Shown piece by piece: positions 1 through 30,812 of a stretch of DNA of 64,000 nucleotides. Source of the DNA: Myxococcales bacterium (GTDB lineage: Bacteria; UBA10199; 2-02-FULL-44-16; JAAZCA01); contig JAAZCA010000014.1 of the NCBI GenBank assembly GCA_012513515.1, positions 1,268 to 65,267 on the forward strand. Direction: 5' to 3'. Within the stretch, counting starts at the first letter, position 1; every line of letters starts with the position of its first letter. A model generated the notes under the pieces. It was not told the origin of the DNA and searched no databases. It saw nothing but the letters and a program-made list of their open reading frames with translations. The position numbers and the translations under genes were made by a program.

Positions 1-1
1 C

Positions 2-1237
2 GGATCGGATTTTGTCGAGATGTTCGTCGGCGTCGGCGCCTCAAGGGTGCGCGATCTCTTCGAACAGGGAAAGAAGAATGCTCCATGCATCATCTTCATA
101 GATGAGATCGATGCGGTGGGCAGGCATCGCGGCGCCGGCTTGGGCGGCGGGCACGATGAGAGGGAACAGACCCTCAACCAACTCCTCGTTGAGATGGACG
201 GATTCGAGTCTAACGAGGGAGTCATAATAATGGCCGCCACTAACAGGCCCGATGTTCTCGATCCGGCTCTGCTTCGCCCCGGCAGATTCGATAGGAGGGT
301 GATAGTTCCGCCGCCGGATGTCGGGGGGCGCGAAGCGATACTCAAGGTGCACGCAGCAAACAAGCCTCTGGCCGCGGACGTCAAACTTGAGATCATCGCG
401 AAAGGAACGCCGGGTTTCTCAGGGGCGGATCTTGAAAATCTTGTCAATGAGGCGGCCCTTCTTGCCGCGCGAGCCTGTAAAAAGAAGATCGACATGTCTG
501 ATTTTGAAATAGCCAAGGACAAGGTCCTCATGGGCACGGAGAGAAAGAGCATGATCATCTCCGAGGAAGAAAAGAAGAACACGGCATATCACGAGGCAGG
601 ACATACCCTCGTCGCAAAATATCTCCCCGGCGCCGATCCGATACATAAAGTTACGATCATTCCGAGAGGGGCGGCCCTGGGCCTTACTCAACAGCTGCCT
701 ACCGACGACAGGTACACCCAGAACAAGAGGTTCTGCGAAAACAGCCTCGTACTTCTTATGGGCGGAAGGGCTGCCGAGGAACTCGTATTCAATCAGCCTA
801 CGACAGGGGCCGGAAACGATATCGAACGAGCCACCCACCTCGCCAGGAAGATGGTCTGCGAGTGGGGAATGAGCGAAAAACTGGGACCGCTTGCCTTCGG
901 CAAAAAGGAGGAGGCGATATTCCTGGGCAGAGAGCTTTCCCGTCACTCCGATTACAGCGAGGAGACCGCGAGAGAAATAGACGGTGAGATTCGCCGCCTG
1001 GTGACTTCCAACTACGAAAAGGCGAAGAGCATAATATCGGAACACAGGGATCAGCTCGAAAGCCTGGCTCAGGCCCTTCTGAAACACGAATCCTTAAACG
1101 GCGAGCAGATCGACCAGGTCATGCGCGGTGAGGAGGTCGTCATCCAGCAACAAGAGATTCGCAGGGACATCCTCAAGGAACAGCAAGAAGAGGGAAAAGC
1201 GGTAAAGCAGAACCCCGCAGCCGACACATCTTTTTAA
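2..1237 (+). CDS. ftsH: ATP-dependent zinc metalloprotease FtsH, C-terminal part (5' end lies outside the window)
   Basis: ORF 20..1237 is open to the window edge. It shows an AAA second region of homology, an M41 protease domain with an HEAGH zinc motif, and the conserved ftsH-folP-glmM gene order. Confidence 0.93.
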
Positions 1238-2059
1238 ATGAAGATACGAAATCTGGAAATAGGCGCCGGTCCCATGCCAGCGATAATGGGGATCTTAAAC
1301 GTAACCCCGGATTCCTTTTCGGATGGCGGTCTTCATTTTTTGCCTTCCGATGCGATCTCTCACGCCTTGAAGCTCATCGATGAAGGAGCGGATATAATCG
1401 ATATAGGGGGCGAGTCGACCCGCCCCGGTTCATCCCCAGTTTCAGAGGATGAAGAGATCGACAGGGTAATTCCTATAATAGAAGGGCTAAGGAGTAGGTC
1501 CGAGATCCCCATATCAATAGATACGTCGAAATCCGCAGTTGCAAAGGCCGCCATCGAGGCAGGGGCCGACTTGATCAACGATATAAGCGCCGGTCGCTTC
1601 GACCCTGAAATATTTGAACTCGCGGCCCTGCATAAAAAACCGATTTGCCTCATGCATATGAAGGGTTTGCCCAAAAATATGCAGGATAACCCCCATTATG
1701 ACGATCTTATCTTCGAAATTAGCGGTTTTTTGTCTGAAGCGGCCTCTTTTGCAATATCAAAGGGGGTCCCATCGGAGCTCATCATTCTCGATCCCGGGAT
1801 AGGTTTTGGCAAGAGCGCCGACGATAACTTATCTATACTTCGCAATATCGGCTCCTTTAAATCTCTAGGTTTTCCTTTACTCATAGGTACATCAAATAAA
1901 TCCTTTATTGGAAAGAAGTTAGGCTTGGATGTTAAAGATAGACTTGAAGCAAGCTTAGCGACGATTCCTGCTTGTATGAATGGCGGGGCCTCAATCTTGA
2001 GGATGCATGATGTAAAAGCAACAAAGCGCTTTTTGGATATGTACCTCCTACTGCAGTAA
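1238..2059 (+). CDS. folP: dihydropteroate synthase
   Basis: The ATG directly follows the ftsH stop. It carries the pterin-binding motifs GILNVTPDSFSDGG and ...IDIGGESTRPG. Confidence 0.92.
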   Translation: MKIRNLEIGAGPMPAIMGILNVTPDSFSDGGLHFLPSDAISHALKLIDEGADIIDIGGESTRPGSSPVSEDEEIDRVIPIIEGLRSRSEIPISIDTSKSAVAKAAIEAGADLINDISAGRFDPEIFELAALHKKPICLMHMKGLPKNMQDNPHYDDLIFEISGFLSEAASFAISKGVPSELIILDPGIGFGKSADDNLSILRNIGSFKSLGFPLLIGTSNKSFIGKKLGLDVKDRLEASLATIPACMNGGASILRMHDVKATKRFLDMYLLLQ

Positions 2060-2157
2060 CCCATATCGCACAAAACTTCTATTTGCTTGATATTTATGTA
2101 AATTTTTTGTACAAGCTCTCGCCTCTAAATTTATACGATTCTCAGGAACAGGGCGAT

Positions 2158-3522
2158 ATGGCAGAACTATCAAATAGAATCTTCGGCACGGATGGAATCA
2201 GGGGAAAGGCCAATTTTTATCCGATAGACTCCGAAACGGCGCTCGCCTTGGGGCGGGCCGTGGCATATCTCTTTAAAAACGGTACAAATCGTCATCGAAT
2301 AGTCATCGGCAAGGATACCCGCTTATCGGGCTACATGATCGAGACTGCGCTTGCCTCCGGGATATGTTCGATGGGGGCGGATGTCATGCTAGTCGGACCT
2401 CTGCCGACCCCGGGGGTGGCATTCATATCCAGGAGCATGAGGGCGGATGCGGGAATAGTGATATCCGCTTCGCATAATCCATTCGACGATAACGGAATTA
2501 AGTTCTTCGACAGGGATGGGTTTAAGCTCAGCGATTCCATGGAGCTCGATATCGAGGAGTTGGTGAAAAGCGGGATTCCCCGCGAAAAATGGCCCAGCGG
2601 AAACCTGATAGGAAAGGCGCAGCGAATAGATGACGCTGGTGGCAGGTATATACAGTTCCTAAAGGACGTACTTTCTTACTCCATCTCATTGGATGGTTTT
2701 CGCATCGTGGTGGACTGCGGCAATGGCGCAGGCTATCGCGTCGCTCCCAGCGTATTTCAGGAGCTGGGAGCCGAAGTCATAGAGCTCGGGACTTCACCAG
2801 ATGGCACCAACATCAATTGCGCTTGCGGTTCCATGCATCCGGAACGGATGTGCAACCTCGTTCGAAAGATGGGAGCCGATGCCGGAATCGCTCTGGATGG
2901 AGATGCTGACAGGGTTATCATGTGCGACGAGCATGGGAACATCGTCGATGGCGATGTCATCATGGCTCTTGCTGCAATAGACCTGAAGAAGCAGGGCAAA
3001 CTGGCGAAAAACACCTTGGTCGCCACCATAATGAGCAATATGGCTCTGGATGGTGCGATGCGCGCTGAGGGTATAAATCTAATCAGGACGCGCGTCGGCG
3101 ACAGACATGTAATATCCACGATGCGCGACAATGGCCTGAACCTGGGCGGCGAACAATCGGGGCATCTCATCTTTCTTGATCACAATACAACCGGAGACGG
3201 AATCGTCGGAGGCCTGAAGGTTCTTGCATCGATGGTTCGCTCCGGCAAGCCGCTTTCCGAGCTGGCGAGTGTTTTTGAGCCATACCCGCAGGTCAAAGTG
3301 GATGTGAACGTTTTGAAGAAGGTCGATCTTTCAGCTATTCCTCAGCTGCAAAAGGCCCTCGATAGTTACAGGGTGGAGCTCGGGAATTCCGGACGGCTGC
3401 TGCTGCGTTTTTCAGGAACTGAGAATATCGCCAGGGTTCTTGTGGAAGGACCCAATCGCGAGCGCATAAGGTGCATGGCAAGCGAGCTTGCGGGGCTGCT
3501 GACTGATCATCTCGCTAACTGA
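2158..3522 (+). CDS. glmM: phosphoglucosamine mutase
   Basis: Carries the GTDGIRG motif, the active-site SASHNPFDDNGIKF motif and the GEQSGH motif. The start was moved to the internal ATG at 2158 (MAELSN...) from the ORF-track start at 2083. Confidence 0.9.
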   Translation: MAELSNRIFGTDGIRGKANFYPIDSETALALGRAVAYLFKNGTNRHRIVIGKDTRLSGYMIETALASGICSMGADVMLVGPLPTPGVAFISRSMRADAGIVISASHNPFDDNGIKFFDRDGFKLSDSMELDIEELVKSGIPREKWPSGNLIGKAQRIDDAGGRYIQFLKDVLSYSISLDGFRIVVDCGNGAGYRVAPSVFQELGAEVIELGTSPDGTNINCACGSMHPERMCNLVRKMGADAGIALDGDADRVIMCDEHGNIVDGDVIMALAAIDLKKQGKLAKNTLVATIMSNMALDGAMRAEGINLIRTRVGDRHVISTMRDNGLNLGGEQSGHLIFLDHNTTGDGIVGGLKVLASMVRSGKPLSELASVFEPYPQVKVDVNVLKKVDLSAIPQLQKALDSYRVELGNSGRLLLRFSGTENIARVLVEGPNRERIRCMASELAGLLTDHLAN

Positions 3523-3538
3523 TTCAACGGAGGAGCGC

Positions 3539-4270
3539 TTGATAAAATTAGGAGTAAATGTCGATCACGTTGCCACCTTAAGACAGGCTAGAGGGACCTC
3601 TTACCCCGACCCGATAGAAGCCGCACTCCTGGCAATAGAAGGGGGCGCCGACCAGATAACGATTCATCTGAGGGAAGACCGCAGGCATATTCAGGATCAT
3701 GACCTGGTTCGAATGAAGTCATCCATAGATGTTCCCTTGAATCTGGAAATGGCCGCTGCAGATGACATCATCGCCGCCGCCGTCAAGATCAGACCCGATA
3801 CCGTCACTCTGGTTCCGGAAAAGAGAAACGAGCTGACGACCGAAGGAGGTCTGGATGTGGTCTCTGCACCTTCCAAACTTAGCGAATGCGTATCAAAACT
3901 CAGAGATTCGGGGATTTTGGTCAGCATGTTCATAGATCCGGAGGCCTCTCAGGTCGATGCCTCGATCTCCATCGGAATAACCGCCGTCGAATTTCACACC
4001 GGTTCATTCTGTGATGCGGTGAATGAAATTCGCGCCTCTGCGGAATTGGAGCGCCTCCTCTTGGCATCCAGATACGCGGCATCGAAGGGGCTCAAGGTGT
4101 GTGCCGGTCATGGTCTCAATACAAAAAACACACCGACGGTGGTCAGGGCGATTCCCGAGATAGTTGAATACAATATTGGGCATTCGATTATAGCCAGATC
4201 CGTCTTTGTCGGGATGCGTGAGGCGGTAAGGGAGATGAAGGAAATTCTTTTTGCAGGCGGGAGGAAATAA
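3539..4270 (+). CDS. pdxJ: pyridoxine 5'-phosphate synthase
   Basis: The MIKLGVNVDHVATLRQARG N-terminus is typical of PdxJ. It uses a TTG start with an AGGAG Shine-Dalgarno upstream. Confidence 0.9.
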   Translation: MIKLGVNVDHVATLRQARGTSYPDPIEAALLAIEGGADQITIHLREDRRHIQDHDLVRMKSSIDVPLNLEMAAADDIIAAAVKIRPDTVTLVPEKRNELTTEGGLDVVSAPSKLSECVSKLRDSGILVSMFIDPEASQVDASISIGITAVEFHTGSFCDAVNEIRASAELERLLLASRYAASKGLKVCAGHGLNTKNTPTVVRAIPEIVEYNIGHSIIARSVFVGMREAVREMKEILFAGGRK

Positions 4271-4346
4271 TTCTCGGGGGAATTGCCCGAAAGAGACCGC
4301 CGATTTTTGCCGGTTGTTCATCGAGGGTATAAAAACTGGGGGGAGA

Positions 4347-4721
4347 ATGATTATCGGAATCGGAATTGATCTGGTTGACGTAAGAAGGTTCGAATCTATC
4401 ATCTTCAGGTGGCGCGACAGGTTTCTAAAGAGGGTTTTTACCGACAAGGAAATCAAATACTGCAATACGAAGAAGCATCCTGCCCAGCGTTTTGCAGCCA
4501 GGTTCGCTGCGAAGCAGGCCTTCATCAAGGCCTTTTTCCCAAAGGGGCACAAGGGAATACGGATGCAGGATATCGAGATAGACCAGAAGGATTCGCGGCC
4601 GGTTATAAATCTTTACGGCATTGCAAAGGAGGCGGCCGATAAGGTCAAGGTCAGCGGCACTCACCTCATGCTTTCCCACGATGGCGATTATTGCATAGCC
4701 AATGTAGTTCTGGAATGGTGA
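4347..4721 (+). CDS. acpS: holo-[acyl-carrier-protein] synthase
   Basis: The MIIGIGIDLVDVRRFE N-terminus is an AcpS signature. The start is the internal ATG at 4347 preceded by GGGAGA, giving a length of about 125 aa. Confidence 0.88.
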   Translation: MIIGIGIDLVDVRRFESIIFRWRDRFLKRVFTDKEIKYCNTKKHPAQRFAARFAAKQAFIKAFFPKGHKGIRMQDIEIDQKDSRPVINLYGIAKEAADKVKVSGTHLMLSHDGDYCIANVVLEW

Positions 4722-4744
4722 TCGATTCTCATCGAGATTTTAAA

Positions 4745-6319
4745 ATGAAACTACTCTCCTCCTCACAGATGCGCTCGCTGGACGAAAGCGCTATAACCCA
4801 GCATCGGATTCCATCCATGGAACTCATGGAAAACGCTGGAAGGGCGCTCGCCGATGTAGCCGCAACCTCTCGTCCTTCCCGGGCAGCAGTCGTATGCGGC
4901 AGAGGGAATAACGGCGGTGATGGGCTCGTGGCTGCGAGGTATCTGATCGGCATGGGGATCGATGTAGCCGTCCTGATTCTGGCCTCGCCTCAGGAGCTCT
5001 CCCCCGACGCTAGGGCGAACTGGGAGAGGCTGGTGAGGATATCCACGAGGGTCTTCCCCTGTACGGATGCTTCGTATTTGAGCAGTCATGCCTCGATCTT
5101 GGCGGAGGCCGATCTCATCGTGGACGCTATTTTCGGAACAGGTCTCAGGGACGAAGTGAAGGGGATATCCCTTCATGCCATAGAGATGATCAACGCGATG
5201 AAGGGGCGAAAGTCGCGCGTGGTATCTGCCGATATCCCGTCGGGGCTTTCATCCGATACCGGCATGCCTCTGGGAGGATCCGTCGTTGCTGATGATACGG
5301 TTACATTTGCTCTGCCAAAACTCGGCCTTTGTCTCGGGAGGGGGTTGGAGTATTGCGGAAATATTCATGTCGTCGATATAGGTATTCCGCCGGAGGAGGC
5401 GGAGAAGATCCCTTCTAAATATTCTCTAATAGTCGGGGATGATGTGCGTCGTTCGTTTTTACCGAGAAGAATGAATTCCCATAAGGGGACCTTCGGACAT
5501 GTGGCGATATTCGCCGGATCGCGAGCCAAGATCGGAGCGGGGTATCTCTCCTCGAGGGCGGCGCTGAGAAGCGGTTCCGGCCTCGTCACCTATGCGATGC
5601 CGGAAAGCGCCTTCGCATTTTTCGATTCGAATTATTCTGAGGTGATGTGCGAACCTCTTCCCGATAACGGTAAGGCATTTTTTTGTCATGAATCGCTGGA
5701 TAAAGCGTTGCATCTTGCGCAGGACAAGAGCGCCGTCGCGATAGGTCCGGCGATCGGGACGGAGGAGGCGACGCGCGCTTTTCTCAACGCCTTTGTGAGG
5801 GATCTCAAAACCAGCTTGGTCATCGATGCCGACGGGCTGAACCTGCTCGATCTCTCTTCCCTCAGGATGAGGGGGGCGGCGACCGTTTTGACGCCGCATC
5901 CGGGGGAGATGGCCAGGCTCACCAAAAGCGATACCGGATTGGTCAATGCGAACAGGACGCAGGCGGCGATCTCTCTTGCGGCTTCCTGTGGGGCAATTGT
6001 GGTCCTCAAGGGGATGGGAACGGTAGTCGCTGCTCCCGATGGACGCTGTGCGATAAATCGAACCGGGAACTCAGGGATGGCATCGGCCGGAATGGGGGAC
6101 GCACTCACAGGGATCATCCTCTCCCTTCTCGGTCAGGGGCTGGACCCATTCGATGCGGCCTGCGCCGGAGTTTTCGTTCATGGAATGGCCGGCGACTTTG
6201 CCGCTTCGGAAATAGGAGAGCGCGCGCTGATAACTTCCGATTTGATAAAAAATCTTCCGCGTGTTTTTTCGAGCATCGAAACTCATAGTCATTCCCGCGG
6301 AATAGAACTGGATCCCTGA
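4745..6319 (+). CDS. nnr: bifunctional NAD(P)H-hydrate repair enzyme Nnr (epimerase/ADP-dependent dehydratase)
   Basis: It has an N-terminal YjeF_N domain (GRGNNGGDG) and a C-terminal carbohydrate-kinase-like domain (GPAIG, GMGD). The last ~12 codons and the stop codon are read through a repeat element. Confidence 0.88.
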   Translation: MKLLSSSQMRSLDESAITQHRIPSMELMENAGRALADVAATSRPSRAAVVCGRGNNGGDGLVAARYLIGMGIDVAVLILASPQELSPDARANWERLVRISTRVFPCTDASYLSSHASILAEADLIVDAIFGTGLRDEVKGISLHAIEMINAMKGRKSRVVSADIPSGLSSDTGMPLGGSVVADDTVTFALPKLGLCLGRGLEYCGNIHVVDIGIPPEEAEKIPSKYSLIVGDDVRRSFLPRRMNSHKGTFGHVAIFAGSRAKIGAGYLSSRAALRSGSGLVTYAMPESAFAFFDSNYSEVMCEPLPDNGKAFFCHESLDKALHLAQDKSAVAIGPAIGTEEATRAFLNAFVRDLKTSLVIDADGLNLLDLSSLRMRGAATVLTPHPGEMARLTKSDTGLVNANRTQAAISLAASCGAIVVLKGMGTVVAAPDGRCAINRTGNSGMASAGMGDALTGIILSLLGQGLDPFDAACAGVFVHGMAGDFAASEIGERALITSDLIKNLPRVFSSIETHSHSRGIELDP

Positions 6320-6411
6320 TAGAACCATTCGGGGATGACAATCATAGTGTCATTTCCGCGGTCTTAAGCCGCCGCTAACGCGGGGCAAACGGGAATCCCG
6401 TGGAATAGAAA
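6288..6411. repeat. composite intergenic repeat (modules GTCATTCCCGCGG / GGATCCC / CGGGGATGAC / AAGCCGCCGCTAACGCGGGG)
   Basis: It shares modules with at least 13 other loci in the window. It overlaps the 3' end of nnr. Confidence 0.8.
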
Positions 6412-6417
6412 TACAAG

Positions 6418-6864
6418 ATGATAAAACGAAAAACAAAATCTCCGGTAGAAACACAGGAATTTGCCGCCGAATTTTCGGCGCGTCTAAGGCCGGGGGACCT
6501 TGTCGCGCTCATCGGGGATCTTGGCGCAGGCAAGACCCATTTTGTCCAAGGGCTTGCAGCGGGTTTTTCCGTTCCGGAAAAAATCTACGTTCGCTCTCCT
6601 TCCTTTGCGTTGATAAACGAATATCTTGGCGGTCGCCTCCCTCTATACCATTTTGATTTTTACAGGCTTTCGGATCCCTCCGAAACAGAGGGGCTTGGAA
6701 TGGAGGAATACTTTTACGGTGAAGGGGTAACGGCTGTCGAATGGGCCGATCATTTTCCTGAACTCATCCCCGCGTCCGCGTATTGGGTGGAATTTAAAAT
6801 CCTCGGCGATAGGGAGAGGGAGATAACGATTACGGGAAAAGATGACGTCATTCCCTCGGAATAG
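6418..6864 (+). CDS. tsaE: tRNA threonylcarbamoyladenosine biosynthesis protein TsaE
   Basis: It has the P-loop GDLGAGKT in a YjeE-like fold of about 150 aa. The stop codon TAG lies inside a repeat element. Confidence 0.85.
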   Translation: MIKRKTKSPVETQEFAAEFSARLRPGDLVALIGDLGAGKTHFVQGLAAGFSVPEKIYVRSPSFALINEYLGGRLPLYHFDFYRLSDPSETEGLGMEEYFYGEGVTAVEWADHFPELIPASAYWVEFKILGDREREITITGKDDVIPSE

Positions 6865-6898
6865 AACTGGATCCCCGATTAAAGCACTCGGGGATGAC
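6847..6898. repeat. REP-like hairpin repeat (GTCATTCCCTCGGAATAGAACTGGATCCCCGAT...CACTCGGGGATGAC)
   Basis: It belongs to the same family and supplies the tsaE stop codon. Confidence 0.8.
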
Positions 6899-6921
6899 GA
6901 ACGCGTCGATAAGGAGGCACA

Positions 6922-8298
6922 ATGTACGATCTCGCTGTAATAGGGGCCGGGCCCGGCGGTTACGTCGCCGCGATTTCAGCGGCTAAACATGGCGCAAAGG
7001 TTTTGCTCATTGAGCGCGAACAAGTTGGCGGCGTATGCCTCAACAGGGGCTGCATACCGACCAAGGCTTATATAGCCTCAGCCCACGCTCTTCACGCCAT
7101 TCATAAATCCTCTGAATTCGGAATCGAACTCGCCGGAGCTGCGGCGATCAATTTCGCAAAAGCCAAGAGTCGCAAGGATGAAGTCGTCTCAACTCTTCGG
7201 GGCGGAATAGAGACCCTTCTCAAGGGAAACAAAATCGAGCTAGTCAGGGGAAGCGCAACCTTTGTGGATTCAGGGCTCAGGATCGGAGAGAGGGAGGTCG
7301 ATGCGAAAAATATCATCATCGCCACGGGATCCGATTGGATCGATCTTCCAGGGATAAAGCGCGATGGCGAAAAAATAGTAACCAGCGACGAAGTTCTCGA
7401 ATGGGACTCTCTCCCCAAAAGTTTGGCGATCATAGGTGGTGGAGTGGTCGGGTGTGAGTTCGCATGTATGCTTTCCGAAATGGGCGTCGCTGTGACCATA
7501 ATCGAAGCGACTCCCTCTATCCTGCCCCCCGTCGAGGCCGGCATATCGCGCCTGCTCGCGCGTTCGATGAAATCCCGTGGAATAGAAATCCTGACATCCA
7601 CCTTTGCCAACTCGGCATCTGTAACCGCCTCCGGCGTTTCGATATCCCTTTCAACCGGCAACTCCATAGAGGTTGAAAAAGTCATGGTGGCGGTCGGCAG
7701 GCGTCCTTTTGTCGAAGGGCTTTCGCTGGCATCGGCAGGAATCGAGACCGACGGGCGGGGCTATATCATCGTGGATGAAAATTTCATGACCAGGAGAAAG
7801 AATTGCTACGCTATCGGGGATGTCAAAGGGGGCTTCATGCTCGCGCATCAGGCCAGCGCGGAAGGGGAGGCGCTCTCGGAATATCTCTTTGGCGGCAGCG
7901 AAAGGCTTCGCGATATCGGTCCTATTCCAAAGCCGATCTTCACCTACCCGGAGGTAGCCTCCGTGGGATTGACTTCGGAAGAGTTGAAGCGCGACGGGAT
8001 AAAATTTTCAACCGGAAGATTTCCGTATGCTGCGTGTGGCAAGGCGCTTTGCGACGGCGAAACGGAAGGACAGGTCCTTGTTCATGGAGATGAAGACGAA
8101 AAAGTTCTCGGCGTTCATGCCTTCGGCGAAGGTGCGACGCTTATGATAGCGGAGGCCGCGCTTGCCATGAAGGCCGGGCTCTCCGTAAGACAGATAGCGC
8201 AGACTGTTCACTCTCATCCGACCATCTCCGAAACGCTTGCAGAGGCCGCAGCCGACGTGTATGGCAGCGCAGTGCATAAGATGGGGAGGAAATCGTAG
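6922..8298 (+). CDS. lpd: dihydrolipoyl dehydrogenase
   Basis: It has a GAGPGGY FAD site, the redox-active GGVCLNRGCIPTK motif and a C-terminal HSHPTISE interface motif. Confidence 0.88.
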   Translation: MYDLAVIGAGPGGYVAAISAAKHGAKVLLIEREQVGGVCLNRGCIPTKAYIASAHALHAIHKSSEFGIELAGAAAINFAKAKSRKDEVVSTLRGGIETLLKGNKIELVRGSATFVDSGLRIGEREVDAKNIIIATGSDWIDLPGIKRDGEKIVTSDEVLEWDSLPKSLAIIGGGVVGCEFACMLSEMGVAVTIIEATPSILPPVEAGISRLLARSMKSRGIEILTSTFANSASVTASGVSISLSTGNSIEVEKVMVAVGRRPFVEGLSLASAGIETDGRGYIIVDENFMTRRKNCYAIGDVKGGFMLAHQASAEGEALSEYLFGGSERLRDIGPIPKPIFTYPEVASVGLTSEELKRDGIKFSTGRFPYAACGKALCDGETEGQVLVHGDEDEKVLGVHAFGEGATLMIAEAALAMKAGLSVRQIAQTVHSHPTISETLAEAAADVYGSAVHKMGRKS

Positions 8299-8300
8299 AT

Positions 8301-8335
8301 GAACTGGATCCCCGATAAAAACGCTCGGGGATGAC
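8301..8335. repeat. REP-like repeat (GAACTGGATCCCCGATAAAAACGCTCGGGGATGAC)
   Basis: It belongs to the same family and lies immediately after the lpd stop. Confidence 0.75.
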
Positions 8336-8356
8336 ACACAGATTGGTCGGAGTAAA

Positions 8357-9574
8357 ATGAATATTATCGTTCAAAAATATGGCGGGACATCGGTGGCGGA
8401 TCTGGAAAAGATCCGCGCCATAGCCGGGCGAATCGCGAAACGCCGGGAGGATGGGGAGGGGATAGCGGTCGTCCTCTCCGCCATGGGGGATTCCACGGAT
8501 CAACTCGTCGGGATGGCAAATGAAATATCAAAGGCACCGGATCCTTGCGCGATGGATCTCCTGCTTGCCACCGGCGAGCAAATTTCAATAGCGCTGATGG
8601 CAATGACTCTAAAGGAGCTGGGAGTGCCATGCGAAACCTTCATGGGCTTCGAGGCAGGTTTTTCCACCAGCGGCGATCACTGCAAGGCGAGGATAAGAAG
8701 GGTGGACCCCTCCGCGGTCAAGGCATCCATCGAATCCGGCAAAGTTGCAATAGTCGCCGGTTTTCAGGGGATTTCGGAGTCGAATGAAATCACGACGATA
8801 GGAAGAGGGGGCTCGGATACCACCGCGGTAGCGCTTGCGGCGGCGCTGGGCGCGGGCCGCTGCGAAATTTACACCGATGTCGATGGCGTCTTCACCGCGG
8901 ATCCAAGCCTTTGCAAAGACGCAAAGCTTCTGGAAAAGAGCTCCTATGAAGAGATGATGGAACTCGCCGATGCCGGCGCCAAGGTTCTTCACAGCCGCTC
9001 TGTGGAGATAGCGGCGAAATACGGCGTGGTTCTGGAGGTTCGTTCCTCATCTACGGGAAGGCCCGGGACATCGCTAATCCCCGAAAGTGAAATTTCAGAG
9101 GGGAGTGTCATATCCGGGATATCTTGCAATCTAGATGAGGCGAAGGTCTCTATAAGGAAGGTTCCGGACAAAGTCGGAGTAACCGCGGCAATCTTCAAGC
9201 CGATTGCGAGGGCGGGGATAGATGTCGATCTCATCATCCAGACGGTTTCTGAGGAGGGCTTCACCGAGCTCAGCTTTACCGTCCCCAAGGAGGACCTTCG
9301 TCGCGCGATGACTCTGGCGGAGGTCGTCGCAAGGGAGGTCGATGCCGGCAAGGTAACCGCATCCGGCGATATCGCTAAAATCTCAATCGTCGGTTTGGGG
9401 ATGCGCAGCCATGCCGGGGTCGCACACAGGATGTTCGATGCGCTCGCGCGGGAGGGGATATCCATCCAGATGATTGGTACCTCCGAGATCAAGGTCTCGG
9501 TGGTCATCGATATGCGCCGCGCAGAGGATGCCGTGAAGATACTTCACCGTGAATTTGGATTGGCGGACCGTTGA
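8357..9574 (+). CDS. lysC: aspartate kinase
   Basis: It starts MNIIVQKYGGTSV, has an amino-acid kinase fold and two C-terminal ACT domains. Confidence 0.92.
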   Translation: MNIIVQKYGGTSVADLEKIRAIAGRIAKRREDGEGIAVVLSAMGDSTDQLVGMANEISKAPDPCAMDLLLATGEQISIALMAMTLKELGVPCETFMGFEAGFSTSGDHCKARIRRVDPSAVKASIESGKVAIVAGFQGISESNEITTIGRGGSDTTAVALAAALGAGRCEIYTDVDGVFTADPSLCKDAKLLEKSSYEEMMELADAGAKVLHSRSVEIAAKYGVVLEVRSSSTGRPGTSLIPESEISEGSVISGISCNLDEAKVSIRKVPDKVGVTAAIFKPIARAGIDVDLIIQTVSEEGFTELSFTVPKEDLRRAMTLAEVVAREVDAGKVTASGDIAKISIVGLGMRSHAGVAHRMFDALAREGISIQMIGTSEIKVSVVIDMRRAEDAVKILHREFGLADR

Positions 9575-9585
9575 CCTAAAAAACA

Positions 9586-9650
9586 GGTTGAGGCTGAGGT
9601 TAAGGTTAAGAAAAATCATTTTCGCTCAACCTTAACCTAAACCTTAACCT
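9586..9650. repeat. hairpin built from tandem hexamers (GGTTAA)n / (TTAACC)n downstream of lysC
   Basis: GGTTGAGGCTGAGGTTAAGGTTAAG ... CTCAACCTTAACCTAAACCTTAACC forms the hairpin and may act as a terminator. Confidence 0.7.
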
Positions 9651-9661
9651 TTCGAATTTTT

Positions 9662-9790
9662 CGGTCGATGGTCAAAAACCGTGCGATAATACGATAGTGC
9701 AATAGTGCGATAAAAGCATGTCATCCCCGAGTGATGAGAAGGTTGTCATCCCCGAGTGGTGTAGTCGGGGATCCAGCAATAAGCGTGACT
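9662..9790. repeat. composite intergenic repeat (GGTCGATGGTCAA, GTCATCCCCGAGTG x2, CGGGGATCC, GCGTGACTCG modules)
   Basis: It belongs to the same family. Confidence 0.75.
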
Positions 9791-9822
9791 CGATATAAAA
9801 ATAAAGATATATTAACTTGACT

Positions 9823-9850
9823 ATGCAGGTTGATATATATTAACCTGCAT
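9823..9850. promoter_or_regulatory. putative operator palindrome ATGCAGGTT-GATATATAT-TAACCTGCAT upstream of the HTH/Doc pair
   Basis: It has 9/10 matching arms around an AT-rich core resembling a -10 element, and it sits directly upstream of the Shine-Dalgarno and ATG of the HTH gene. Confidence 0.55.
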
Positions 9851-9862
9851 AAAGAGGTTAAT

Positions 9863-10117
9863 ATGACCATCAAAAACTTCGTGTCGACGACGGAAGCCGC
9901 TAAAATCCTCGGAATAAGCACGGTAGCTGTCTTTAAAAAAATCAAGAATGGTCAGCTTCCAGCGCAGAGGGTCGGTAGAAATTATCTGATCGACATAAAA
10001 AACCTCGGTCTTAAAGATTCCAAGCCCAATAAAAAAACAAAAAAGCTGATCAGCGAAGCGGTGAAACGCGCGGTTTCTGAATATGGAGAAGCGTTGAAAA
10101 AACTGGGGGAAGAGTAG
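9863..10117 (+). CDS. excisionase/MerR-type helix-turn-helix DNA-binding protein, putative antitoxin
   Basis: A Xis-family HTH (AAKILGISTVAVFKKIKNGQLPAQRVGRNYLI) is preceded by an AGAGG Shine-Dalgarno, with an operator-like palindrome at 9823..9850. Its stop overlaps the start of the downstream Doc gene. Confidence 0.75.
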   Translation: MTIKNFVSTTEAAKILGISTVAVFKKIKNGQLPAQRVGRNYLIDIKNLGLKDSKPNKKTKKLISEAVKRAVSEYGEALKKLGEE

Positions 10118-10536
10118 TGCATATACTTTCTCTTCAGGAAGTTCGCGATATAGCATTCGAGCTCGCCAGAGAGAGTATGGCATGGGACGAACCTATTCCG
10201 GATTTTGACACCCGATTTCCTAACGTCCTGGAAAGCTGTCTATCGGCACCTTTTCAAACCTTTGACAAAAAAAATCTTTACAAAGGGTTGCTCGAAAAGA
10301 GCGCAATACTTTTCTATCTCATGATAAAGAATCATCCCTTTGCAAATGGCAACAAACGCATAGCGGTTACAGCTCTGCTTGTTTTCTTGGCTCTAAATGG
10401 GAAATGGTTGGAGGTAAGCAATCAGGAACTGTATAATTTTGCGGTTTGGGTGGCAAGCAGCCCGCCGCAACTCATGAACGAAACCGCTGATGCTATAGAG
10501 GGTTTTCTGACAAAAAATATCGTCTGTTACAGTTGA
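10117..10536 (+). CDS. doc: Doc/Fic-family toxin (death-on-curing type)
   Basis: It carries the exact Doc motif HPFANGNKR (HxFx[DN]GNKR). It uses a GTG start overlapping the upstream stop (TAGTG). Confidence 0.85.
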   Translation: MHILSLQEVRDIAFELARESMAWDEPIPDFDTRFPNVLESCLSAPFQTFDKKNLYKGLLEKSAILFYLMIKNHPFANGNKRIAVTALLVFLALNGKWLEVSNQELYNFAVWVASSPPQLMNETADAIEGFLTKNIVCYS

Positions 10537-10544
10537 AGGACTGG

Positions 10545-10745
10545 CAAATTGACCATGGACCATAGTGCGATAAAAGCCTGTCATCCCCGAGTGATTTTAT
10601 CGGGGATCCCGTAACGACCGTGACTGGTGGAAAAACAGAGGCTAGAGGTGAGATGTTAGAAACTAGAAAAAAACGGGCTCGTAAAAATCTCGTTTCTCAC
10701 TTCTAGATTCTAGCTTCTTGATGTCGGTCGATGGTCAATTGTCGG
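10545..10745. repeat. composite intergenic repeat plus CTAGA-type tandem-repeat hairpin (10630..10720)
   Basis: It carries the modules TTGACCATGGACCA, GTCATCCCCGAGTG, CGGGGATCCCG, CGACCGTGACTGGTG and GGTCGATGGTCAATTG. A hairpin GGCTAGAGGTGAGA...TCTCACTTCTAGATTCTAGC lies inside it. Confidence 0.75.
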
Positions 10746-10981
10746 GTTTAGGATGCATATCCCTGAAAAGAGCTGTTGGCATATTCGTTCAGATATTGTT
10801 AGAATGGGCGCCATCATTATTTAAGATTCGGGGTCCCTTTTATGCGTCAGAAAACGGATGCGCGCCTTATCATAACGAGAATGCCTGTTTCGATTTTTTC
10901 GCGTAATCACTTGAAATTATTCATTATTAGCTAAATCGGCTTTGGCATATAGGTTGCAACGTTATACGCCTGGAGGTTCTT

Positions 10982-13900
10982 ATGAAGAAAATAACCATAC
11001 TAATTCTTTCCGTGATCGCGATCGCCGCGGCCTATCCGCTTTTCGCCGCACAGGATTTTGGGTTTTCCGATCCGATACCGGTCGTCGGGGATAACCCAAA
11101 TGATCCAGGCGGGACGAGTGCTGTGAGGATGTATTTTTTCAATCATCCGGCATACACGGGGGACTCTAACTTCTCATCCTCATATGAGATCGATAAAAAA
11201 GTGAGCGATGTGATTGCAGTTCCGGGATCTGTTAGGATTGGAGAGCCTACTGCTATCTATTTACCCGCTTTTGGCTATGATAAGTCAAATATGCCGAAGT
11301 TAAAATCAACTTTAGGTTTAGGGCCTAGGAATTTGACTCTAAAGTTTGCTGAAGATAAGGAAATTACGCGTTATTTAGTGATGAGACCCTCCACCAAACC
11401 TAACCGACATGGAAGGTCAGTAGTGCTTGCAGATATCAGAAAAACGAAGTCAGGCGAATACCAATCACTTTCACTCGGAAATGACCGCCAATATATCGGC
11501 TATGCAGGCAACTATATTGCCCCATACTTGAGCGCTTCAGGGAAGAGCGATCATCCGGCATTATTTAAAAGTGCCAGCTCTGCTTACTTCAAATGGTGTT
11601 CCAGATCCAATAACATGGGTATCTACTTCGAATGTGCCGAAGAGGATACAATAGAAGAGATAGATGATATATTAGCGTACGACCTGGTTCCGCCTGTTGA
11701 TGCCTCTTTGATGATAACCCCCGTTTTTGATCCATTGCAGATACATGTGGGCGGTACAACTGCTGAACGTGGGTACTTGCTGAAAAACGGCCAAAGCACC
11801 AAGGGTTTTTATGCACTGAACGCAGCTACTACGGGTGCAGAACAACGAAAAGGCGAATTTAGAAAAGGCGAATTTAACTTTGCCTTAATTTCTCCTCTAA
11901 GTTTCTTTTACAAAGGCAACTACGACAAATATCGTTTTTTGGGGTACTCAAGTCTTCAGGACTACGTGATAGACATGACAGCGTTTCCTGAGAACAACTC
12001 ATCACTAGGGGGACTTAATCCAGAAGATTGGTTCGACTTACTCTATAAAAAGGTTGACGAACCTAAGGACTTTAGCTCAATTTTTATGTTGTATTCTTTA
12101 GGTTTAATAAATCTTCCCTATGCCACAGCTAACACTGTTTCGTCCGAGACACGTACCGCAGAATCACTACAGACGATCAGCGATATAATAGCGCCTGCCT
12201 ACATCACCAACCCATGGTTTCCGGTGGCGGCCAACCCTGTGGCAGTTGTCAGGGATTCTAGCCAGGATGTAGCTACCCTTTATTACAACACACTCTTTAG
12301 TTGGAATGATTTTTTGCTTACCCCTTATGGGCGTCCGACAATTTTCAAGGACATGGATGTTCACAGAATGAAGGAACTCGTCGGTTTTAAAAAAACAGAC
12401 GGATCCTTTACTTCTCTGGAAGACTGGTCTGGATATGAGTTCTTTTATCCGAGCAAGGTGGTAGTGCCGGTGGTGATATGGGGAGTCGGTGATGTAGATA
12501 TTGCGCAGTATGAGACATCCAATCCATCTTCGATAATTACGCCGAAAACGGTAGCTCTCGTGGATTATGGCGCCTCCAGCCACCCTGGAATTTTCAATAT
12601 GGCACATTTGCAGGACAGATCAAGAATTCCTAAAGACTATCTTCTTCTTCCCTCATCCATCGCTAACAATCGTGGCTTTGCCGGCATGATATACGTCATC
12701 GATAAAAATGACACGGAAAGCCAGCTTCATATGAAGAGTTGGAAATGGACCGAAGAACTAGGAAATGCTGACGATGTCAGAAAACGATTCGCCCTAAGGC
12801 CAAGAGAAGAAATATATACGGAAATTCCGTTCAGGGTTCCTTCCAAGGCTATTATGATTCCTCCCTATGATGGAGATCCAAACGTGGTCCCTTATCAACT
12901 TGCCACGGGAAACCTTGATGGAGATTCCTGTCAGGATATCGTGGTAAGTTATCGAAGCGCCGAGATGGTAACAGATATCCCAACTAAAAATTACACTGAC
13001 TTTCACGTATCCTATCCAAACCTGTTCAGCATCATATTCAGGAGCCCGCTCAAAGATGGTAGCTGCCCATTTTCCACTAGTGATAAATATTGGGATCCTG
13101 ATGGCATTACTGTTGTTCACAAAACTTTGCCGATTTTGGGTGGGAATACGGCCGGCAATGCCGCTGTTTCAGCGGTTTCAATAGGCAATTTCGTGGGAGA
13201 ACTTGGAAATAAAAAAAGAAACGATATAGCCGTCGGAAACCTAAATCTCGAGAAGGACGCCGATGGCAATTTTGCCGGCTTTGTCTACGTCTTTGCGAAT
13301 TCGGAAGATGACATTGATCGTACAACCGGAAAGCCGATCTTTAGTTCGCCAAACACAGGATATGACCCAACTACGGGCATTGGCGCCATCAGAATTAAGG
13401 CCGGTTTTAAATCTCATCCCGATAGCACAGATAAGTGGGGCGTGGGTTATTTGACGACTGACAGCGTTAGTGTTGAAGAATACGACAACATAGGTGCCAT
13501 AAGCGGACTTCCGCTGATCCTCCCATCCCTGGCATGTCCAGTAAGCGGCAGCGATACAACCAGGGCAGTTAGCGTCCATGAAGGAATGCTCGCCACCCTA
13601 TATGCGAGAATGAGTGAAAGCATAGGATGTGATGAGATAATATCAGCTAACGAAAATAATTTAAACCAAAGCTCATGCATGGACTCCACTCATAAAATGG
13701 AATACCCTTTTCAAAAATTCGGCATGCCATTGCCTCAGCGCTGTGCGCCCAGAGAAGGGGTATGTGGAGCTGGTCTTGTTGAAGAAGCAACTAATTACAA
13801 ACTTCCGTTGTGGAGTGATATAGATTGCCCAACCCAATGCTCAAAATGGGAAAATCTATGCTTACTTAGCCAGATGGACCAAAATCTTACGTCATCTTCA

Positions 13901-16372: not shown

Positions 16373-16560
16373 TCGACCATGGACAATTGGCCTCTGTTTT
16401 TTCCAGTCACGGCTGTTGCTGGAGGGGGTCGAATCCTGATCGCTGATCCCTGATCTTTGATCAGCATTTTGTAAGATTAGCTTATATTCGAAAACATCCT
16501 TATTAAGATTAAGATCAGGATCAAGATTAAGATGAAGATTAAGATTAAGAGGAAGATTAA
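16373..16560. repeat. composite repeat: CGACCATGGACAATTGGCC module + ~105-bp MITE-like element (copy A) + (AAGATT)n hexamer tract
   Basis: The 105-bp core is nearly identical to 17343..17447, with 2 mismatches. Confidence 0.8.
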
Positions 16561-16911
16561 TCAAAATATCGGATTAAATTTTTTCATATTGATGATCATA
16601 GCATAAGCCCTGCGAAGCAGCGTTTTTAGTTCTTCCTGATACTTGGCGGATATATATCCATAAGCCGATAGGATATCGATGATCGAGGCGACCTCGGCTA
16701 TTGAGCCTGGGGAGATATCGAAAAACCGATTTCTGTCTTTTTGGGACTTTCTGCCATTTCCTTCCGCTAAGTTAAGCAGGGTGCTGGAAAGGGCTCGTTT
16801 AAGCTGATCCTCCAGATAGTAATTTCCCCTTGGAAGAGATCCTATTAGCTCTGGCATTCTTTTTGCGACCGAAAGCAAAAGTCCGTAGCAGTTAAGCCGC
16901 TGATGATTCAT
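16561..16911 (-). CDS. four-helix-bundle protein (TIGR02436-like, '23S rRNA intervening-sequence protein' family)
   Basis: It is 116 aa and starts MNHQRLNCYGLLLSVAKRMPELIG...NLAEGNGR. A GGAGG Shine-Dalgarno precedes it, and a paralog is encoded divergently. Confidence 0.8.
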   Translation of the reverse strand: MNHQRLNCYGLLLSVAKRMPELIGSLPRGNYYLEDQLKRALSSTLLNLAEGNGRKSQKDRNRFFDISPGSIAEVASIIDILSAYGYISAKYQEELKTLLRRAYAMIINMKKFNPIF

Positions 16912-16926
16912 TTAAAACCTCCTCCT

Positions 16927-16984
16927 TGTGATTTTAATTTCAAAACCTCCCGACCGGCTGAGAGGTTTTGAAATTAAAATCACA
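16927..16984. promoter_or_regulatory. perfect 23-bp inverted repeat (TGTGATTTTAATTTCAAAACCTC - 12 nt - GAGGTTTTGAAATTAAAATCACA) between the divergent four-helix-bundle genes
   Basis: Both arms were read directly from the sequence. The element sits between the two Shine-Dalgarno sequences. Confidence 0.8.
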
Positions 16985-16996
16985 GATGGAGGGGTT

Positions 16997-17332
16997 ATGT
17001 TCGGACATCAGCGGCTTTACTGCTACAATCTTTGCCTTGGGGTGGCAAAAAGGATGCCAGAGCTAATCGGATCATGGCCATCGGGGTCAGGATATCTCGT
17101 GGATCAGCTTAAACGGGCCCTTTCGAGCGTTATACTGAATATCGCTGAAGGAAATGGTAGAAAGTCGATAAAGGAGAGAAGACGGTTTTTCGATATCGCG
17201 ATAGGTTCTGCTGCCGAAGTATCCTCTATCTTCGATGTCGCCAGAGCTTATGGATATATCACCGAGCCAGTCTATGAGGAGCTTCAGTCGGAGCTGCTTC
17301 AGGTGGTGAGGATGCTATACAAGCTGAAGTAA
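16997..17332 (+). CDS. four-helix-bundle protein (TIGR02436-like), paralog of 16561..16911
   Basis: MFGHQRLYCYNLCLGVAKRMPELIG...NIAEGNGR is roughly 60% identical to its neighbour by eye. A GGAGGGG Shine-Dalgarno precedes it. The ORF-track start at 16928 lies inside the palindrome, so the start was reset to the ATG at 16997. Confidence 0.8.
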   Translation: MFGHQRLYCYNLCLGVAKRMPELIGSWPSGSGYLVDQLKRALSSVILNIAEGNGRKSIKERRRFFDIAIGSAAEVSSIFDVARAYGYITEPVYEELQSELLQVVRMLYKLK

Positions 17333-17337
17333 TCCTC

Positions 17338-17552
17338 GAATCCTGATCCCTAATCCCTGATCTTTGATCAGCATTTTGTAAGATTAGCTTATATTCGAAA
17401 ACATCCTTATTAAGATTAAGATCAGGATCAAGATTAAGATTCGGGGATGACACCATGAATGTCATTCCCGCATGCTGTAAGCCGCCGCTAACGCGGGGCA
17501 AACGGGAATCCCTTGCCAATCGTTCAGCAGTTACGAGTCACCAGTCACAGCT
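17338..17552. repeat. composite repeat: ~105-bp MITE-like element (copy B) + CGGGGATGAC / GTCATTCCCGC / AAGCCGCCGCTAACGCGGGG / CACCAGTCAC modules
   Basis: It is a direct repeat of 16426..16530. Confidence 0.8.
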
Positions 17553-18987: not shown

Positions 18988-19136
18988 TCGACCATGGACA
19001 ATTGACCTCTGTTTTTCCCAGTCACGCTTGTTACGGGATCCCCGATAGAACCATTCGGGGATGACGACCTTTTCGACACTCGGGGATGACAATCACGCCG
19101 TCATTCCCGCGGTTTTAAGCCGCCGCTAACGCGGGG
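18988..19136. repeat. composite intergenic repeat (CGACCATGGACAATTGACCTCTGTTTTTCCCAGTCACG + GGGATCCCCGAT + CGGGGATGAC x2 + GTCATTCCCGCGG + AAGCCGCCGCTAACGCGGGG)
   Basis: It belongs to the same family. Confidence 0.8.
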
Positions 19137-21334: not shown

Positions 21335-21335
21335 C

Positions 21336-23040: not shown

Positions 23041-23165
23041 AGCCGTGACTGGTGAGACAAGAAGGTCGTCATCACCGAATGGTTCTATCGGGGATCCCGC
23101 AACGACCGTGACTTGTGACTAGTGACTCGTAACTGGTGAACGGTTGGAACGGGATCCCGCAACAA
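23041..23165. repeat. composite intergenic repeat (AGCCGTGACTGGTGA, GTCATCACCGA, CGGGGATCCCGCAACGACCGTGACT, GTAACTGGTGAACGGTTGGAAC, GGGATCCCGC)
   Basis: It belongs to the same family. Confidence 0.78.
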
Positions 23166-24494: not shown

Positions 24495-24570
24495 CTCACC
24501 AGTCACGGCTGTTACGGGATCCCCGATAAAAGCACTCGGGGATGACACCATGAATGTCATTCCCGCATGC
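24495..24570. repeat. composite intergenic repeat between convergent genes (CACCAGTCACGG, GGGATCCCCGAT, CACTCGGGGATGAC, GTCATTCCCGC)
   Basis: It belongs to the same family. Confidence 0.78.
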
Positions 24571-30734: not shown

Positions 30735-30812
30735 TCGACCATGGACGATTGACCTCTGTTTTTCCCAGTCACGCTTGTTACGGGATCCCCGATTACACCA
30801 CTCGGGGATGAC
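30735..30812. repeat. composite intergenic repeat (CGACCATGGACGATTGACCTCTGTTTTTCCCAGTCACG + GGGATCCCCGAT + CACTCGGGGATGAC)
   Basis: It is near-identical to 18988..19060. Confidence 0.8.

Follow-up and report, generated by a model that had tools for sequence, protein, structure and literature searches.

The closest described relatives of the repeat reported here are the CGTC-tagged repetitive extragenic palindromes (REPs), which consist of a CGTC or TGTC head (CCTC is also accepted), a stem of 8-9 bp beginning with A-T at its first and second positions, a loop of 4-5 nt, with exceptions in some species, and a CCA tail (PMC3733652; Di Nocera, De Gregorio and Rocco 2013). According to that survey, head-to-head dimers predominate, CGTC REPs are not known to have a dedicated transposase, and their hosts in 2013 spanned five phyla; CGTC-1 is the dRS3 element of Neisseria, and CGTC-1 and CGTC-4 are RPE-6 and RPE-4 among the Rickettsia palindromic elements (RPEs). 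REPs between co-directional genes sit near the 3′ end of the upstream gene, members of several REP families overlap coding regions, REPs of the GTAG type often supply a TAG stop codon, and some REPs are translated (PMC3733652). Neisserial intergenic mosaic elements (NIMEs) are built from dRS3, as 20-bp inverted repeats (ATTCCC-N8-GGGAAT) flanking RS modules of 50-150 bp (PMC1797815). Here we describe a hairpin-forming repeat at the 3′ ends of three consecutive genes, nnr, tsaE and lpd, in a 64,000-nt stretch of a Myxococcales bacterium genome (GCA_012513515.1, contig JAAZCA010000014.1, positions 1,268 to 65,267; hereafter the window). Very probably, these are REP copies of the CGTC/TGTC superfamily that fill tight operon spacers and land on stop regions, the stop codons they contain being an incidental by-product.

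The three genes belong to an operon of co-directional housekeeping genes in the order glmM-pdxJ-acpS-nnr-tsaE-lpd-lysC, established from the list of open reading frames (ORFs) and family assignments by profile models; the other window proteins were mapped by Pfam scans. We compared this locus with ten conspecific assemblies obtained independently from other samples (L001-L010), with the sister lineages L011 and L133 (JGI 3300009673 and GCA_046128295.1) and L132 (bacterium ADurb.Bin270, GCA_002069625.1), and with 120 stretches from GTDB representative genomes of other phyla (L012-L131). DNA identity between the sister lineages and the window is about 88-90%, with a gene order common to all. The repeat arrangement at the gene ends is the same in all ten conspecific assemblies, two of which are identical to the window over 4745-8356, and is therefore no assembly artefact.

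Two copies of a 52-nt unit, 88% identical (repeat family D3) and 559 nt apart, lie at the ends of nnr and tsaE (Table 1). Their consensus is GTCATTCCC[G/T]CGGAATAGAA-CTGGATCCC[T/C]GA-N9-TCGGGGATGAC. A third copy, downstream of lpd (8304-8335), holds the hairpin part only, CTGGATCCCCGA-TAAAAACGC-TCGGGGATGAC. Read on the opposite strand, the hairpin consists of a TGTC or CGTC head, an 8-bp arm ATCCCCGA, a 9-nt loop, the arm TCGGGGAT and a CCAG or CCCG tail. The window contains ten canonical copies, plus half copies, all of the form [C/T]GTC + ATCCCCGA + 9-nt loop + CC(A/C)G, with loops that include ATGGTTCTA, GTGCTTTAA and GCGTTTTTA. Heads are TGTC at nnr and lpd and CGTC at tsaE; these three copies and the one at 9745 have a CCAG tail, and the remaining window copies CCCG. 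The ATCCCCGA/TCGGGGAT stem is 8 bp long, and at nnr it has one G-U pair (ATCCCTGA).

The 3′ end of nnr reads ATC GAA ACT CAT AGT CAT TCC CGC GGA ATA GAA CTG GAT CCC TGA. Sequence is native to about 6285 (..SSIET), and S-H-S-R-G-I-E-L-D-P from 6287, together with the TGA, is repeat-derived, the last 10 codons and the stop lying within copy 1 (from 6288). A preliminary description of this locus had placed about 12 codons and the TGA inside the repeat; the TGA is indeed there, and the number of codons comes down to about 10, the ..SSIET stretch being native in orthologues. NCBIfam and Pfam models stop at residue 506-508 of 524, and in a set of 60 C-termini, homologues at ≤56% identity end a few residues past ..IE... 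In the relatives, every Nnr runs into a GTCAT-type arm after ..SIET, with three outcomes (tails are given up to the stop codon): SHSRGIELDP in the window (full C-terminal peptide ...IETHSHSRGIELDP), SHFRGTELDPRLKPRG in L011 and L133, and SHSRMI in L132. The L011 and L133 copy has a compensated stem variant, CCCCGC/GCGGGG, and an 8-nt loop, and the L132 nnr end carries a long-loop REP only, without the 9-nt-loop hairpin. The window TGA itself is the product of a C>T change within the stem (CCCCGA>CCCTGA), and an in-frame TAG from the loop follows directly.

At tsaE, whose 3′ end reads GAT GAC GTC ATT CCC TCG GAA TAG, the stop is the TAG of the same module, as had been proposed: the gene end is the start of the second unit copy (6847-6898), which holds the last 5 codons (V-I-P-S-E) and the TAG. 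The K-D-D before the unit (AAAGATGAC) is also unlike the sister lineages that end in GGEQQ. TsaE ends ...ITITGKDDVIPSE in the window (GKDDVIPSE) and GKDDVIPTE in L133, and both genomes have AAAGATGA[C/T]GTCATTCCC[T/A]CGGAATAGAACT ahead of the same hairpin; in L132 and L011 the protein ends ITITGGEQQ, followed by a different module and then by the orthologous hairpin. Profile models end at residue 140 of 148, and most of 50 orthologues stop 0-4 residues past the conserved REIxI strand.

At lpd the change is slight. The gene ends AGG AAA TCG TAG, and the hairpin copy begins 5 nt further on (ATGAA). The repeat had been described as directly adjacent to this stop; it is next to it with those 5 nt between, and the TAG, which sits at the junction, is assignable to neither the repeat nor the native side. 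More than 50 homologues end in HKxGR(K/R)x, and TIGR01350 covers residues 1-452 of 458. The lpd-lysC site is empty in L132, where ...AAA TAG gactgct ATG leaves a 7-nt spacer and the protein stops at GRK; in the window, 58 nt that contain the hairpin and a new GGAG precede the lysC ATG, and Lpd ends GRKS. By this comparison Lpd is native but for one extra Ser, with at most one residue changed.

In all, Nnr gains about 10 residues, TsaE has about 8 in place of 4, and Lpd gains 1. These alignments lend strong support to a remodelled C-terminus in Nnr and TsaE and minimal support in Lpd, and the repeats went into the gene ends rather than the reverse. The earlier proposal that insertions had replaced or extended the native C-termini is thus upheld by the empty lpd-lysC site in L132, the alternative Nnr and TsaE tails and the orthologue ends; aligning the C-termini with orthologues yielded no identical tails in repeat-free genomes. 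On sequence grounds, the empty site and the alternative tails also establish the polarity of insertion and turnover by recombination between modules. The 52-nt unit is read in frame 3 in nnr (HSRGIELDP) and in frame 1 in tsaE (VIPSE). There is therefore no conserved peptide, and the coding is incidental; so are the stops, because one unit is read in two frames with stops at different unit positions. Contact between gene ends and modules is also not limited to nnr, tsaE and lpd, since the recG TGA (21332-21334) overlaps the start of another mosaic module (GACAGCCGTGACTCGTAA; region 21332-21350) and the stop of the AAA-ATPase gene at 21573-23033 lies 4 nt ahead of a copy of this recG-end module (23031-23055).

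These observations suggest how the overlaps might arise. Without repeats the operon genes would almost abut, as at the empty lpd-lysC site, and a tolerated insertion or module exchange must therefore hit the stop or the final codons before it, upstream of the ribosome-binding site that follows. From there the ORF would continue into the repeat up to the first in-frame stop, giving short lineage-specific tails. In one frame this stop is the TAG of GGAATAGAA, and in the other the TGA made by C>T in the stem, backed by the loop TAG. In operon spacers with copies the downstream gene starts 57-98 nt further on, its ribosome-binding site intact, and the AAGGAGG ahead of lpd is kept in all lineages compared. 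The phenomenon is a known side effect of such repeats and calls for no new mechanism, as REPs that overlap ORF ends and supply stops are already published (PMC3733652).

The hairpin is strongly enriched in the window. Allowing ≤1 mismatch, CTGGATCCCCGA has 9 sites against 0.50 expected and TCGGGGATGAC 17 against 1.31; the 20-mer GTCATTCCCGCGGAATAGAA, at ≤3 mismatches, has 2 against 0; and a generic search for hairpins of such shape yields 18, where shuffled sequence gives 2.0. Frequently, 9 nt beyond a copy's head lies GTCATTCCCGC, which makes up head and arm of a second REP type. REPs of this type have a long loop enclosing a small hairpin of its own, and instances begin at 6349, 17461, 19100, 24556 and, on the minus strand, 21394. 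Such pairs of hairpin and long-loop REP are head-to-head dimers, and in the predicted fold GGGGATGAC-N9-GTCATTCCC can pair too. In the start of the 52-nt unit, GTCATTCCCGCGGAATAGAA, head and arm of the second REP type are fused without a gap to GGAATAGAA, which is otherwise found just upstream of tsaE (6402). Other recurrent modules are interleaved with the hairpins (CCAGTCACGGCTGTTAC, TTCGACCATGGACAATTGACC, ATAGTGCGATAAAAGC and TTAAGATTAAGAT-type tracts; families D2-D19), and the spacers across 6-31 kb are mosaics of short modules.

These mosaics turn over among close relatives, with differing module content at syntenic spacers of the window, L011, L132, L133 and L004. The pdxJ-acpS spacer holds a 161-nt dimer of the two REP types in four conspecific assemblies (L004, L006, L007 and L008, with TsaE identical to the window), whose place is taken in the window, L002 and L132 by 45 nt that are unrelated to it (window 4271-4348 against L004 7738-7897). 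On the left side of this spacer L004 is 93% identical to the window, on the right side 99.7%. Such spacer changes resemble whole-segment replacement. The junction GGAATAGAACTGGATCCC of the 52-nt unit was not found as a dispersed repeat, all 49 metagenome matches being unrelated coding sequence; as it is not repeated elsewhere and the two copies lie 559 nt apart, local duplication or conversion is the most likely origin of the nnr and tsaE units. The mosaic divergence of conspecific assemblies indicates, from alignment, frequent recombination in the population. Over window positions 1-11149, L002 and L003 have 0 differences at about 4250-9250 and dense differences at 500-2400 and 9250-9750. A role of the repeats as recombination breakpoints, in the style of NIMEs, is not supported: one strain pair switches at the pdxJ-acpS spacer, but the boundaries near 2500 and 9250 miss repeats.

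The exact hairpin GGATCCCCGA-N9-TCGGGGATGAC occurs in at least 120 stretches from other genomes (scan with one genome per species). Among the matches listed, hosts include Omnitrophota, Nitrospirota, Desulfuromonadales/Geobacter, Elusimicrobia, Calditrichota, Beta- and Gammaproteobacteria, Bacteroidota, Chloroflexota, Parcubacteria and others; of 134 listed copies, 72 have a TGTC head, 58 CGTC and 4 GGTC, the tail is CCA in 124, and the loop consensus is RTGYTTTTR. Many copies are preceded by GTCATTCCCG-N8-13-CGGGAATCCAG, and many fully paired stem variants occur in these loci. Of 268 hairpins in the fetched loci, 205 have a 9-nt loop, though the search pattern biases this set, and a 4-nt loop is present in 24 partner hairpins. 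For the partner hairpin GTCATTCCCGCGAAAGCGGGAATCC, the dRS3-like half of the consensus dimer, Neisseria gonorrhoeae has a 36-nt match of 94%, at 40 or more places per record, and further matches lie in Azospirillum, sphingomonads and Cupriavidus, all of them CGTC REP hosts; ATTCCC-N8-GGGAAT lies beside the hairpin in 14 of the fetched other-phyla loci. In phage and plasmid collections the 9-nt-loop hairpin has no match, and only the dRS3-like half of the dimer matches (Neisseria, Azospirillum, sphingomonads and one Microcystis phage). With Rfam 15, only tRNA-Met passes the gathering score in the window, and a permissive search of 6200-10700 gave chance-level matches only, none on the copies. 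Literature searches by raw sequence, repeat-derived peptide and keyword found no description of this repeat, and the family was recognised through the REP literature. Structural and sequence comparison places the hairpin as a member or subfamily of the CGTC REP superfamily, set in NIME-like mosaics.

In several of these stretches (L012 144-173, L060 4693-4722, L049 349-378, L027, L039, L061 and L105; for example in Omnitrophota and Auribacterota), the hairpin, sometimes with the dRS3-like partner, falls inside very long ORFs from a crude caller. They are candidates for intragenic REPs read in frame, as with the RPEs of Rickettsia.

Several points weigh against an origin by incidental landing of CGTC REPs. 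The insertions lack clean target-site duplications, and at these sites whole segments appear to have been replaced. Among the genes of 1-52 kb, no mobilising enzyme and no transposase or recombinase domain was found. Every window copy has a 9-nt loop, against 4-5 nt in the four published CGTC families, and a search of the window for the strict dRS3 consensus, ATTCCC-N8-GGGAAT, gave 0 matches. Finally, that three stops in a row each have a copy no more than 9 nt away could be the result of selection for a regulatory effect.

In a stronger version of the REP assignment, the 9-nt-loop hairpin would be a distinct, undescribed CGTC REP subfamily. Its identical stem and loop consensus in more than 15 phyla would then reflect ongoing horizontal spread or a conserved binding or mobilising protein, and in this operon stop-proximal copies would act as translation brakes instead of being neutral debris. 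We regard this combination as rather unlikely; were it true, the conserved protein could be the "missing" enzyme of CGTC REPs.

A regulatory effect on translation can also be imagined without a new subfamily. An 8-bp G+C-rich hairpin at or near a stop would need melting by the terminating ribosome, and by analogy with E. coli REPs could lower translation of the upstream gene. As summarised in PMC12306157, Liang, Rudd and Deutscher (2015) found that E. coli REPs lower translation only if fewer than 16 nt separate them from the stop codon. The stem includes the stop at nnr and begins 6 nt after it at tsaE and 9 nt after it at lpd; all three are therefore within this rule. Copies might accordingly be kept near stops to tune the operon, stalling the terminating ribosome and lowering nnr, tsaE and lpd output relative to the neighbours, and the C>T change that makes the nnr TGA does retain a G-U pair on the mRNA strand. 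Against this, copies are missing or rearranged in the sister lineages, and such variability argues against a conserved role at these positions. The other window copies lie 35-150 nt from stops, in either orientation; single stem mismatches, compared by strand to tell selection on RNA from selection on DNA, gave 4 cases that agree with G-U on the mRNA strand and 4 that do not; and the effect is shown in E. coli alone. Translational tuning as the reason for the placement therefore seems improbable.

The preliminary description had itself suggested a role in termination or 3′-end stabilisation, under which function would explain the exact position of the hairpins. REPs of E. coli stabilise upstream mRNA (Newbury et al. 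1987), and by the same analogy the window hairpin may slow 3′-to-5′ decay of the upstream message. All window copies lie in spacers containing a gene 3′ end, with none in the two purely divergent spacers (43908-44288 and 49608-49903), and elsewhere copies between divergent genes are mildly depleted (14/78 and 23/160 among the matches listed). The copies are nonetheless not intrinsic terminators. No U tract follows any copy (the sequences after the stems at nnr, tsaE and lpd are GACAATCATAG, GACGAACGCG and GACACACAGA), and a terminator scan found no terminator-like site at any copy. The stem is just 8 bp and its energy modest (-12.8 kcal/mol for the lpd copy; z-scores -1.4 to -1.8), with a z of -3.4 for the fold of 6280-6417. 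A stem that contains the stop would be melted at every round of translation termination. Moreover, the next operon gene begins after 57-98 nt and retains its ribosome-binding site, lineages of about 90% identity have these sites empty or built in another way, and both orientations relative to flanking ORFs are equally common in other genomes (++ 22, -- 24, +- 18 and -+ 14, from 135 copies among the matches listed). Nothing testable here supports this role, which we consider as doubtful as translational tuning.

Much less plausible still is that the 52-nt unit is a miniature inverted-repeat transposable element (MITE) with terminal inverted repeats (GTCATTCCCG ... CGGGGATGAC), moved by an unseen transposase that prefers stop-codon regions. 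The unit ends pair over 10 bp in the predicted fold, short direct repeats (TCATAGT) flank the extra nnr segment relative to L132, and presence is polymorphic. Yet the unit has only two copies, close enough for local duplication or conversion, with a junction whose metagenome matches are all unrelated coding sequence; the sites have the look of segment replacement, no transposase lies within 1-52 kb of the window, and CGTC REPs are reported to lack a dedicated one (PMC3733652).

Side by side with these readings stands a 19-nt exact identity, AATCCCGTGGAATAGAAAT, between the module end upstream of tsaE (6394-6412) and native, conserved lpd coding sequence (7571-7589, K-S-R-G-I-E-I); sister lineages keep 18/19 of it, and the estimated chance is about 6e-5. 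It suggests that some exchange between coding sequence and repeat may have happened, but the wider idea that native C-terminal coding was copied round the genome from original tails is already contradicted by the empty lpd-lysC site in L132 and by the same hairpin standing verbatim beside unrelated genes in many phyla, besides the TsaE and Nnr tails that differ among sister lineages and are absent from orthologues and the translation of one unit in two frames, and can be set aside with near certainty.

With the insertion of CGTC-type REPs into tight spacers as the preferred reading, the locus offers a natural series (an empty site, three Nnr tails and two TsaE tails) in which essential genes have had their ends remodelled harmlessly by palindromic repeats. 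In metagenome-assembled genomes rich in these repeats, the last residues of many annotated proteins are translations of repeats, and small ORFs of repeat sequence should also occur as spurious calls; gene calls and comparisons of C-termini therefore require caution. With one exact hairpin spread over so many phyla, the range of CGTC REPs now goes beyond the five phyla of 2013.

Table 1. Genes and repeat copies in the window. For repeats, the strand is the head-to-tail orientation of the REP.
Feature	Position	Strand	Details
nnr (bifunctional NAD(P)H-hydrate repair enzyme)	4745..6319	+	ATG 4745, TGA 6317-6319
52-nt unit, copy 1	6288..6339	-	Fold and hairpin search: TGTC + ATCCCCGA, loop 9, 1 mismatch, tail CCAG
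Copy 1, first part	6288-6307		GTCATTCCCGCGGAATAGAA; collapsed remnant of second REP plus local flank
Copy 1, REP parts			Tail CTGG 6308-6311; arm ATCCCTGA 6312-6319 (holds nnr TGA); loop 6320-6328; arm TCGGGGAT 6329-6336; head GAC(A) 6337-6340
nnr-tsaE spacer module	6340..6412	+	9-nt spacer AATCATAGT, then long-loop REP GTCATTTCCGCGG ... ACGGGAAT CCC
Long-loop REP of the spacer module	within 6340..6412		Nested hairpin GCCGCCGC-TAAC-GCGGGGC, then GTGGAATAGAAAT up to 6 nt ahead of tsaE ATG
Spacer module with copy 1			Head-to-head dimer GGGGATGAC-N9-GTCAT; families D4, D6, D13, D17; further copies at 17461, 19100, 21394(-), 24556
tsaE	6418..6864	+	TAG 6862-6864
52-nt unit, copy 2	6847..6898	-	GTCATTCCCTCGGAATAGAA 6847-6866 holds tsaE TAG 6862-6864; CGTC + ATCCCCGA, loop 9, 0 mismatches, tail CCAG
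Copy 2, REP parts			Tail CTGG 6867-6870; arm 6871-6878; loop TTAAAGCAC 6879-6887; arm 6888-6895; head GAC(G) 6896-6899
lpd (dihydrolipoyl dehydrogenase)	6922..8298	+	TAG 8296-8298
Inserted lpd-lysC spacer with REP copy 3	8299..8356	-	Starts ATGAA; TGTC + ATCCCCGA, loop 9, 0 mismatches, tail CCAG
Copy 3, REP parts			Tail CTGG 8304-8307; arm 8308-8315; loop TAAAAACGC 8316-8324; arm 8325-8332; head GAC(A) 8333-8336
lpd-lysC spacer, final 21 nt			GGAG ribosome-binding site for lysC
REP copies downstream of lysC	9720..9776	+	Half copy 9720-9730, full copy 9745-9776
REP copy	10580..10611	+	44 nt 3′ of Fic gene
REP copy and half copy	19034..19090	-	Full 19034-19065, half 19080-19090; 68 nt 3′ of OmpA-family gene; long-loop REP next
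REP copy, one stem mismatch	23068..23099	+	35 nt 3′ of gene 21573-23033
REP copy	24515..24546	-	Between convergent genes; GTCATTCCCGC next, head-to-head dimer
REP copy	30781..30812	-	Between two minus-strand genes

Elsewhere in the window, within 9702-10611, a small helix-turn-helix (HTH) gene and a Fic-domain gene (9863-10536) lie between 34-nt direct repeats (9702-9735 and 10562-10595, 97% identical), and both repeats continue into REP copies that share one orientation; this gene pair resembles a cassette that repeat recombination has inserted or framed. At 16429-17440, two divergent PF05635 genes (23S rRNA intervening-sequence protein, a four-helix bundle; 16561-16911 on the minus strand and 16928-17332 on the plus strand) share a repeat-rich spacer and are bracketed by 105-nt direct repeats (16429-16533 and 17336-17440, 98% identical). 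We rejected the idea that the repeats travel with PF05635 genes, as an iterative hidden Markov model search of all ORFs gave 1 match in the 120 other-phyla loci, with sensitivity limited to relatives of two seeds. Between an arginine decarboxylase gene and its neighbour, 41270-41413 holds a tandem repeat of period 18 nt (TTCTTCTTYRCYACYTTT, at least 6 units), which on one strand is probably repetitive coding sequence.

Compared with known systems, the window repeat shares features with several classes of operon and intergenic repeat. Mycobacterial interspersed repetitive units (MIRUs) are intergenic operon repeats with small ORFs that overlap the flanking genes at their stop and start codons. 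Like them, the window repeats take up operon spacers entirely, from the upstream stop to the sequence just before the next start, the nnr-tsaE spacer modules reaching to 6 nt before the ATG; MIRUs differ in being tandem direct repeats of 46-101 bp with no palindromes, and no coupling ORF is seen in the window. With the REPs and bacterial interspersed mosaic elements (BIMEs) of E. coli, the window repeat has in common that transcribed extragenic palindromes lie in operon spacers in alternating orientations, many with ≤15 nt between them and the upstream stop. The E. coli elements have a GTAG-type head and REP-associated tyrosine transposases (RAYTs), unlike the CGTC/TGTC head here, for which functional effects can be proposed by analogy.

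Closer to the overlap itself are the GTAG REPs, intragenic REPs and RPEs (PMC3733652), in which, as here, a repeat is translated within a real protein and supplies its stop, with short tails tolerated in housekeeping enzymes. The window stops lie outside the REP head, in the flanking piece of the 52-nt unit at tsaE and in the stem and loop at nnr, which sets them apart from those of GTAG REPs, and the insertions are at the extreme C-terminus rather than in the protein interior occupied by intragenic REPs and RPEs. NIMEs resemble the spacers described here in being mosaics of short palindromes and other modules, in syntenic arrays that vary between close relatives, and in the match of the partner hairpin of other genomes to dRS3. 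They differ in that the window is without the strict dRS3 consensus, its arrays are short (50-300 nt), its mosaic breakpoints are not consistently at repeats, and no link to surface-protein variation or a phage recombinase was seen.

The strongest likeness is to the CGTC REP superfamily, which shares with the window repeat an unpaired CGTC or TGTC head, an 8-bp stem starting A-T and a CCA tail. Both are multicopy, mostly occupy co-directional or convergent spacers near the upstream 3′ end with occasional overlap of ORF ends, occur in several phyla and form head-to-head dimers with a second REP type. CGTC REPs are reported to lack a dedicated transposase, and in the window no transposase, Y1 transposases included, was found among the genes of 1-52 kb. 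What distinguishes the window repeat from the four published CGTC families, as these are described, is its 9-nt loop with a consensus of its own, RTGYTTTTR; its stem is ATCCCCGA, against ATTCCCGC in dRS3. Its host, an uncultured anaerobic-digester lineage, is also unlike the published hosts of CGTC REPs, and its relatives among the matches listed reach phyla beyond those given in PMC3733652, including Omnitrophota, Nitrospirota, Elusimicrobia, Calditrichota, Chloroflexota, Parcubacteria and others.

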